A DNA stretch of 64,000 nt from Escherichia coli (GCF_024700885.2 NZ_CP117016.1), one strand, 5' to 3'; counted from the stretch's first letter, positions 18,898 to 21,593 are shown. Translations and numbers: made by a program. The notes: generated from the letters alone by a model not told the origin.

Positions 18898-18959
18898 ATT
18901 TATCAGGAGAAAACAGATATGCGTAAGCGTGCAGCAAGAACCGTATTGACGGGGATGTG

Positions 18960-20477
18960 TTATTCAGTCGGCAGTGCTACGCGCCAGGGGAGCAGTTCGC
19001 CGACCCGGTTTATCGGCCAGTCGGCTATGACGTCAAGGACATAGCGGAGGTAGCTTTCTGGCTCCACTCCGTTCAGTTTGCACGTCCCGATCAGGCTGTA
19101 CAGCAGCGCTCCCCGCTCTCCTCCATGATCCGAACCGAAGAACAGGTAGTTTTTGCGGCCCAGACTGACCATCCGCAACGCATTTTCAGCGATGTTATTG
19201 TCCGCCTCAGCCCAGCCATCATCTGCATAGTACGTCAGCGCCGGCCACTGGTTCAGGGCGTATGCGAACGCTTTCGCCAGTTCTGAGTGTCGCGACAGGG
19301 TTTTCATCTTTTCACGCAGCCAGCTTTCCAGGGATTTCAGCAGCGGTTTCGTTTTCAACTGACGTTCGGCAAGGCGCTGCTCCGCCGTCATTCCCCTTAT
19401 CTCTGCCTCGATGGCGTACAGTTCGCCGATCCGTTTCAGCGCTTCCTCCGTCAGGGCTGACGGGGTACGAACGTGCACATCGTGGATTTTACGGCGGGCG
19501 TGAGCCCAACAGGCGGCTTCCGTTATCCGGCCATCCCGGTACAGCTCGTTGAACCCGGCGTATGCATCCGCCTGCAGTACACCACTGAACCCCGCAAGAT
19601 GGGTCTGCGGATGGATGCCTTTTCTGTCCGGGCTGTAAGCGAACCACACCGCCGGCGCCTGCGTTGACCCGGCGTTACGGTCGTCACGAACGTAGGTCCA
19701 TAACCGCCCGGTCTTCGTTTTCTTATTAGGCGTGTCATCAGCATGGAGCTTACCGTCAGTCAGCACATAGTCCTGAAGCGCCTCTTCCAGCGGAGACAGC
19801 AGCCGGCAGCATGCATCCACCCAGCCCGACAGCAGTGAACGGCTCAGCTCCACACTTTGCCGACCGTATATTTCTGACTGGCGATACAGCGGGGTGTGCT
19901 CTGCATACTTCGAGGTCAGCACGCGGGCCAGCAGCCCCGGTCCGGCGATACCCCGCTCGATGGGCCGTGAAGGCGCGGGGGCCTGCACGATGGCATCGCA
20001 CTGAGTACAGGCATGCTTTTCACGTACAGTCCGGATAACCCGGAAGGCGCTGCGCATCAGCTCCAGCTGTTCGGCGGCATCCTCACCCAGATAGCTCAGC
20101 GAGCCTCCACATTCCGGGCAGCATGACGCTGCCGGCAGCAGCCGTTTTTCATCGCGGGGGAGTGATTCGGGGAACGGTTTGCGGGTGCGGGTTTGACGCA
20201 GCGGGCGCTGCACGGCCGGGTCGTCAACCCGACCGGTAAGGGTATCACTTTCTTTCTGAAGTGCCTTCAGGTCAGCTTCCATCTGTGCGATACGACGGGA
20301 GACTTTTTCGGAGCAGCTGCCGAAGTTCATCCGGCGCAGCTTATCCAGCTGTGCCTGCAGATGGTCTATTTCGCGTTCACGCTCGTTCAGCTTTTCCAGC
20401 AGGGCACGGTTCAGCGCCTCCTGTTCGGCAAGGAGACGTTTCAGTGCATTGATATCGTCAGGAAGTGAGCTGCTCAT
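18960..20477 (-). CDS. tnpC: IS66-family transposase TnpC
   Basis: 505 aa with N-terminal coiled-coil/leucine-zipper region, CxxC zinc motif (CCPECGG...CTQCD) and IS66-type core. Confidence 0.85.
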
Positions 20478-20525
20478 ACCGGGTATATTACCAGGCTCAT
20501 TCAGCGTCGACCAGGATAAAGAGGC

Positions 20526-20873
20526 TTACAACATAGTCAGGGACGTAAGCAGTCTTTTAGGCTGCCGCCAGTCGATACCTTCCAGCAGCATCGCCAGCTG
20601 TGCCGGTGTGAGGAACACTTTGCCATCCCGGGCTGACGGCCAGGCGAAGCGGCCGTGCTCCAGCCGTTTGGTCAGCAGACACAGTCCATCGCCGGTAGAC
20701 CAGAGGAGCTTTACCTGACTGCCATTACGCCCACGGAAGATAAAAACGTGACCTGACATCGGATCGTCTTTCAGCGTCGTCTGCACCTTTGCCGCCAGGC
20801 CGTTGAAGCCGTTTCTCATATCGGTGATGCCAGCGACCAGCCAGATCTTTGTCCCTGATGGTAATGGGATCAA
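20526..20873 (-). CDS. tnpB: IS66 accessory protein TnpB (orfB)
   Basis: 115 aa, KIWLVAGITDMRNGFNGLAAKV is typical of IS66 orfB. Confidence 0.8.
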   Translation of the reverse strand: MIPLPSGTKIWLVAGITDMRNGFNGLAAKVQTTLKDDPMSGHVFIFRGRNGSQVKLLWSTGDGLCLLTKRLEHGRFAWPSARDGKVFLTPAQLAMLLEGIDWRQPKRLLTSLTML

Positions 20874-21274
20874 CGTTTGAGCTCCCGTATCAGCAGGTTC
20901 AGGATATTTTCGCTGATGGCACCATTCAGACGGAGTGATCCGTGCCGGAACGTCACTTCACAGCTGATATTGAGTGATTCAGGTGTCGCAGCTGCTACAG
21001 GTTGTGACCGGGGGGAGGTTGTAGGGACAACATCTTCGGCATCAAGTGTTATCGGGAGCAGCTCAGGCACGTTGTTTTCTGTTGTTGAAGGAGGACGTAG
21101 TTTTCCTTCGCGCCAGTACTGGCGCCACTTGAACAGCAAATTATCGTTGATCCCATGCTCACGAGCGAGTTGCGCTACGGAGATCTCTGGTCGATGCGAG
21201 AGTTCAACCATTTTGATTTTGAACTCAACGGGATAATTAGGGCTTTTTTTACGCACTGCAGTTAATGATTTCAT
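20870..21274 (-). CDS. tnpA: IS66 accessory protein TnpA (orfA)
   Basis: 134 aa, first ORF of the element, 4-nt overlap with orfB. Confidence 0.75.
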
Positions 21275-21359
21275 GGATAGCGTCCACCATATTTGGTGTC
21301 CACTATTCTCTCAGGAATTTCAGGATCTGCCAGACGGTGCTGAGACGACGCTTACAGAT

Positions 21360-21593
21360 ATGCCGGGTTACACAGAGTATGTCCTGGCTGAAGGATCTTT
21401 CTCATACGGGCAGGCGGTTGCTGTCATAACAGCTTACCGCAATGTGTTTATCCAGGATGACCCGGGAATGCATTTCCGTCGGATTATCCGCAACACGGAA
21501 GGTCAGCGACGCTGGCGCTGCCGGAATTCTGAACCCGATGCCGGAAAGGTGCTTAATACGCGGCTCGCCAGTGACGGTCTTCTCAGACAATAA
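21360..21593 (+). CDS. DUF905-like (YkfF-like) small protein; native Shine-Dalgarno displaced by the IS66 insertion
   Basis: ATG lies inside the right target-site duplicate; reconstructed pre-insertion sequence gives AGGAG-N9-ATG. Confidence 0.45.

Follow-up and report, generated by a model that had tools for sequence, protein, structure and literature searches.

Genomic setting and anatomy of the element

The window (the whole stretch of DNA analyzed here, 64,000 nucleotides long, from whose first letter all positions are counted) is the reverse complement of chromosomal sequence from Escherichia coli MLI114 (NZ_CP117013.1), which originates from human stool in Mali, and the 14.4 kb surrounding the insertion considered here are identical to that record. 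The insertion is housed in a CP4-type genomic island. Genes for a YfjI-family protein, a GTPase, an Ag43/Cah adhesin, an 840-aa hypothetical protein and IrmA precede the insertion sequence (IS), and are followed on its other side by DUF905, DUF932, antirestriction, RadC/JAB and DUF987 genes and then by YeeU/CbtA toxin-antitoxin genes. One border of the island is a type VI secretion fragment, and the other is formed by ISEc10, the kps capsule locus and the gsp/sslE type II secretion cluster. The type VI fragment (positions 1-2483, minus strand) abuts the left side of the island and contains tssB, tssC and a frameshifted tssK. ISEc10 (IS21 family; 26166-29144), whose istA is frameshifted, lies inside a DUF4942 gene that is consequently annotated as two fragments, and it is followed by an IS110-family transposase remnant (approximately 29474-29656). 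The 840-aa protein encoded between Ag43 and IrmA (15787-18309, plus strand) had no Pfam match and is a "hypothetical protein" according to PGAP; its N-terminal half is rich in predicted membrane segments, and its position is kept in the other islands read. Three genes of the toxin-antitoxin region, located 2.5-4 kb downstream of the IS66-family element and on the same strand as each other, include two with premature stops. These are an "antitoxin of TA stability system" gene (23846-24529), which has an internal stop, and the YeeU/CbeA-family antitoxin gene that it precedes (24540-24908, plus strand), codon 43 of which is an in-frame stop in place of the Tyr found in a homologue. The CbtA-family toxin gene that comes next (24998-25375) is annotated as intact.

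The upstream neighbor of the target site is an irmA-family gene (18385-18840, plus strand; Pfam PF18673 IrmA, E = 2e-37; "IrmA family protein" in PGAP). On the far side of the element is the DUF905 gene (21360-21593, plus strand), an intact open reading frame (ORF) of 77 codons that matched Pfam PF06006 with an E-value of 1.2e-17 (64.2 bits, cut-off 22.3), residues 8-74 aligning to profile positions 2-68 of 70. The same residues aligned with the DUF905 prototype, YkfF of E. coli K-12 (PDB 2HJJ; E = 3e-16), although YkfF is a separate protein, a paralogue of the product of the interrupted gene.

Between the two genes lies the IS66-family element itself (18923-21355, minus strand, 2433 bp), with three genes in the order tnpA-tnpB-tnpC. 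The tnpC gene (18960-20477, minus strand) encodes a DDE transposase of 505 aa (canonically 512 aa), in which DDE_Tnp_IS66, zf-IS66, LZ_Tnp_IS66 and IS66 C-terminal element domains were recognized (PF03050, PF13005, PF13007 and PF13817), and which scored 451 bits against NF033517 transpos_IS66 (cut-off 180). The product of tnpB (20526-20873, minus strand) is an IS66 Orf2-like accessory protein (PF05717 TnpB_IS66, E = 3e-38; NF033819 IS66_TnpB), and that of tnpA (20870-21274, minus strand) is a helix-turn-helix accessory protein (PF01527 HTH_Tnp_1; NF047595, 82.8 bits, cut-off 74). The TTG start of tnpB overlaps the tnpA stop by 4 nt (TTGA). The terminal inverted repeats, GTAAGCGTGCAGCAAGAACCGTAT at the tnpC end (18923-18946) and, as reverse complement, GTAAGCGTCGTCTCAGCACCGTCT at the tnpA end (21332-21355), are imperfect, with 16 of 24 positions matching and the first 8 perfect. 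They begin with GTAAGCG, which we take to be the typical IS66-family terminus. Every IS66-family hallmark that could be tested was present in the element.

A search of 5426 complete E. coli genomes gave 2454-bp copies that match the whole element at 98.6-98.7% identity, and PGAP names their transposase "IS66-like element ISEc22 family". ISEc22 has been described as a 2454-bp member of the IS66 family (PMC5001619) that generates 8-bp direct repeats (PMC4048246). Because of the close identity to the PGAP-named copies and the published length, the element is very likely an ISEc22 isoform. It shares its termini, gene order and 8-bp target-site duplication (TSD) with ISEc22, but is 2433 rather than 2454 bp long as a result of a 21-bp in-frame deletion in tnpC.

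Target-site duplication and empty sites

Identical octamers, AGATATGC, directly abut the two IS termini, which read GTAAGCGT... from 18923 and ...ACGCTTAC up to 21355. The left copy (18915-18922) holds the original ATG of the DUF905 gene (18919-18921), and the right copy (21356-21363) supplies the ATG that the gene retains (21360-21362), so that the duplication reaches from -4 to +4 relative to the start codon and an ATG is present in both copies. The termini were fixed independently of these repeats, by comparison with ISEc22 at three further loci, where the end bases are the same and the flanks unrelated. With the ends thus fixed, the chance of an identical flanking 8-mer is 4^-8 (approximately 1.5e-5), and the plus strand of the window has the octamer only 3 times. 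The other sites carry unrelated 8-bp duplications (CGCCAGTG, ATATATTC and GAATCAGC), and no motif is common to the TSDs of the four independent sites; hence ISEc22 lacks a strict target sequence.

Deleting positions 18923-21363, that is, the element and one octamer, yields TTATCAGGAGAAAACAGATATGCCGGG, in which AGGAG is followed by 9 nt, an ATG and then the 77-codon ORF. To look for this configuration among the complete genomes, we used an 860-bp reconstructed query (423 bp from the left, including one octamer, and 437 bp from the right) and counted single uninterrupted matches covering at least 80% of it. Empty sites were found in approximately 2129 of the 5426 genomes, with the surrounding genes annotated as IrmA, DUF905 and DUF932. 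Three of them were read, in MLI108K3, AREA_492 and E. coli B REL606 (L003, L004 and L005, respectively). All were co-linear with the reconstruction and differed from it at 6-7 scattered positions, with 0 mismatches within 100 bp of the junction. MLI108K3, which comes from the same study as MLI114, has an equal local gene order and nearly equal record coordinates.

An earlier note on this DNA had described an IS66 insertion with an 8-bp target duplication, the removal of which, together with one repeat copy, rebuilds AGGAG-N9-ATG in front of a 77-codon DUF905-like gene, and had proposed a comparison with IS-free islands. The IS66 domains and the identical AGATATGC copies on both sides confirm this description, the rebuilt start region can be read directly from the sequence, and the comparison, carried out here, showed that the rebuilt junction matches all three empty sites, none of which conflicts with it.

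The same data bear on the order of events. If the repeat were coincidental or carried by the element, the IS could be ancestral in the island and IS-free islands could have arisen by secondary deletion. However, the element has the same boundaries in ISEc22 copies elsewhere, yet these lie between different flanks and different 8-bp repeats, approximately 2129 genomes are uninterrupted and have exactly one octamer, and precise loss of an IS together with one repeat is rare, which makes many independent losses implausible. We thus attach next to no probability to an ancestral element, a history that the empty-site alignments and ISEc22 end comparisons effectively refute.

Consequences for the DUF905 gene

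In empty sites, an AGGAG Shine-Dalgarno sequence directly precedes the DUF905 ATG. In the window, this sequence (18905-18909, plus strand) is orphaned to the left of the element, while the DUF905 ORF is preceded by IS-end sequence instead, with four native bases left before the retained ATG. Predicted anti-Shine-Dalgarno pairing to the 16S 3' tail amounts to -7.4 kcal/mol in the native context versus -3.0 kcal/mol after insertion, the latter with a sequence that lies over 20 nt ahead of the ATG. The arrangement visible in the sequence, together with these values, shows that, as the earlier note claimed, the gene was separated from its ribosome-binding site. The native Shine-Dalgarno sequence and ATG now read into the IS, giving a 41-codon ORF (18919-19044, plus strand) that is a by-product of the insertion and probably a meaningless frame.

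The same note had the insertion separate the gene from its promoter as well. This holds in the sense that the IS cuts the gene off from everything upstream, but no promoter was identified as lost. A consensus scan found a terminator-like hairpin with a 12-bp stem and a T-run after irmA (18865-18903, plus strand; RNA fold -22.2 kcal/mol, z = -4.5), the hairpin ending 11 nt before AGGAG, and a second terminator-like hairpin with a T-run follows the DUF905 gene (21615-21654, plus strand; -22.6 kcal/mol, z = -5.0). We scanned the empty site, the occupied site and a wider 10-kb region for promoters; counts were at or below shuffle expectation, with no sigma-70-like site between irmA and the DUF905 gene in either the empty or the occupied site. 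Given the location of the hairpin and the lack of a sigma-70-like site after irmA, native transcription of DUF905 must start upstream of the hairpin or read through it. Promoter loss caused by the insertion is therefore plausible. Because the ribosome-binding site was lost, reduced translation is expected, and we expect the DUF905 gene to be silenced or strongly down-translated. Nonetheless, there is no sign of gene decay: PGAP calls the gene intact, and the accession of its product (WP_001119719.1) is identical in the empty-site strains REL606 and MLI108K3.

It is also conceivable that the insertion rewired the gene rather than silencing it, with signals in the tnpA-proximal IS end driving DUF905 or a chimera, and possibly also the downstream DUF932, antirestriction, RadC or toxin genes. 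The chimera in question is a 106-codon ORF (21273-21593, plus strand). Its ATG lies within the IS, 83 nt from the end of the element, and the frame runs through the inverted repeat and on into DUF905 without a shift. The outward-facing open frame at this end of ISEc22 (21273-21355, plus strand) begins with an ATG overlapping that of tnpA (CATG). Beside another ISEc22 copy, on a plasmid, where this frame lies at positions 2672-2754 of locus L011, PGAP starts a thermonuclease coding sequence at the same IS-internal ATG. The DUF905 ORF is, furthermore, still intact in all occupied alleles inspected. Although some expression of DUF905 may still come from a promoter that faces outward in the IS end, or from translation of the chimera, no sigma-70-like site was found on the plus strand between 21000 and 21360, and neither the DUF905 ATG nor that of the chimeric ORF is preceded by a Shine-Dalgarno sequence, as assessed by anti-Shine-Dalgarno pairing. 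An in-frame fusion has a 1 in 3 chance of arising, and the ORF could just as well be intact because decay has had too little time. The 106-codon ORF is probably fortuitous, and rewiring by the IS end is very unlikely.

Scarcely more than a speculation is the idea that ISEc22 acts as a regulatory switch of the downstream module (DUF905, DUF932, antirestriction, RadC/JAB, DUF987 and YeeU/CbtA), either by blocking read-through from the Ag43-irmA side or through expression of the IS-DUF905 chimera. If such a read-through block were real, the YeeU-family antitoxin gene of MLI114 could have gained its stop codon even with an intact CbtA toxin ORF.

Distribution of the allele and its private changes

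Reduced expression of DUF905 through loss of its ribosome-binding site, the reading that we prefer, would extend well beyond MLI114. A 400-bp query spanning the right junction, counted when at least 80% was covered in one piece, was found in 169 of the 5426 complete E. coli genomes, and the 60 matches listed were all single-piece, at 99.5-100% identity. The left-junction query was found in 92 genomes, a number that includes at least 19 two-piece matches representing a different insertion. The two counts thus differ, but both junctions are present at two occupied loci taken from the right-junction matches, and the gap may reflect a limit of search reporting or alleles with a rearranged left side. 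Position, orientation and the AGATATGC octamer were equal in strains MS 21-1, GENOMIC22-004, N1193 and AF58, and the same insertion point, orientation and TSD characterize the allele of O55:H7 DEC5E. Junctions, orientation and TSD were likewise alike in loci L002, L009, L010 and L013. Unlike the MLI114 copy, the ISEc22 copies of these other strains are full length (2454 bp), and several are accompanied by a different left-flank single nucleotide polymorphism (SNP) haplotype.

ISEc22 has also inserted at the 3' end of the DUF905 gene in NDM3-6, "strain 167" and other genomes. The element, its orientation, the 234-bp target gene and the 8-bp length of the duplication are the same as in the window, whereas the site (equivalent to window positions 21566-21573) and the TSD (CGCCAGTG) are different, and the ORF is truncated rather than detached from its ribosome-binding site. 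This insertion (positions 3911-6365 of locus L006), present in at least 19 other genomes, is an independent event. The proximity of both DUF905 insertions to terminator hairpins prompted us to consider a hairpin-targeting preference of ISEc22, which was rejected since one insertion lies 22 nt after its hairpin and the other 42 nt before, so that neither distance nor side agrees.

Two insertions in one small gene raise the question of a recurrent hot spot, in which ISEc22 would have hit the same octamer independently in different lineages, either because the DUF905 region attracts the element or because its inactivation is selected. The clearly independent insertion at the 3' end is consistent with this, as are the left-flank SNP haplotype of the window, which differs from those of three other occupied alleles (L002, L009 and L010), and the 11-14 SNPs by which IS copies at the shared site differ. 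On the other hand, no occupied allele examined departs from the others in position, orientation or TSD, and with no TSD motif across the four independent sites, chance re-use of one octamer is very unlikely. Recombination between paralogous CP4-type islands, of which there are several per genome, can explain the differences in the flanks and between IS copies as easily; AREA_492 has one empty and one occupied island copy. Repeated insertion into the same octamer is accordingly unlikely, and the shared allele most likely descends from an old single event and has since spread with the island module.

What sets the MLI114 allele apart from the others is only the 21-bp tnpC deletion and a few SNPs. 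Alignments place the in-frame deletion at 19727/19728 (minus strand), where the residues VPVLLPG are lost directly after LHADDTP, inside the TnpC catalytic domain. TnpC also carries three private amino acid changes (G208S, L273Q and D316G). The PF03050 score is 337.1 bits for the MLI114 copy versus 358.4 bits for a full-length copy, a difference that reflects the deletion and the three substitutions together. Based on the lower score, at least part of the lost segment appears to match family-conserved positions. A search of PDB sequences with TnpC returned no solved relative, and a literature search for the IS66 DDE motif yielded nothing usable. With seven codons deleted and three private changes in the transposase core, the transposase is probably impaired and the MLI114 copy probably no longer autonomous. 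Among the 5426 complete genomes, a 100% match to the element was found only in the source strain. Outside the element, three private substitutions are clustered at 21609-21612, past the DUF905 stop and ahead of the next terminator hairpin, where the window has T, T and G and all seven of the other alleles compared (7/7) have C, C and A.

Taken together, we have high confidence in the following sequence of events. ISEc22, using its DDE transposase TnpC and the accessory proteins TnpA and TnpB, transposed into a CP4-type island of E. coli. As is typical of the family, the cut was staggered by 8 bp; it spanned -4 to +4 relative to the DUF905 start, and its repair duplicated AGATATGC. The native Shine-Dalgarno sequence and one ATG thereby came to lie to the left of the IS, opening the 41-codon frame into it, and the 77-codon ORF with the second ATG to its right, behind IS-end sequence that provides no ribosome-binding site. 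DUF905 is now separated from any upstream transcription by 2.4 kb, which would have to be read antisense through the IS, and is expected to be silenced or strongly down-translated. The allele, most likely from this one event, has spread with the island module, and the copy in MLI114 later acquired the 7-codon deletion and three changes in the transposase core, which probably left it non-autonomous. The presence of the ATG in both TSD copies, the sharing of the allele by many genomes and the internal deletion are facets of the insertion beyond those described in the earlier note.

RefSeq already annotates the insertion, the island, the DUF905 family and the 8-bp duplication, none of which is new; this is an ordinary insertion, and the allele is widespread. 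Its importance is largely confined to annotation. The DUF905 gene (WP_001119719.1) is intact according to PGAP but, going by its sequence context, very probably untranslated in MLI114 and in at least 169 other E. coli with the allele, which calls for caution in pan-genome analyses based on gene presence or absence. Lineages can be marked by the shared junction and by the private 21-bp deletion in tnpC. Finally, two independent ISEc22 insertions in one 234-bp gene offer a weak hint that loss of DUF905 may be tolerated or even favored.
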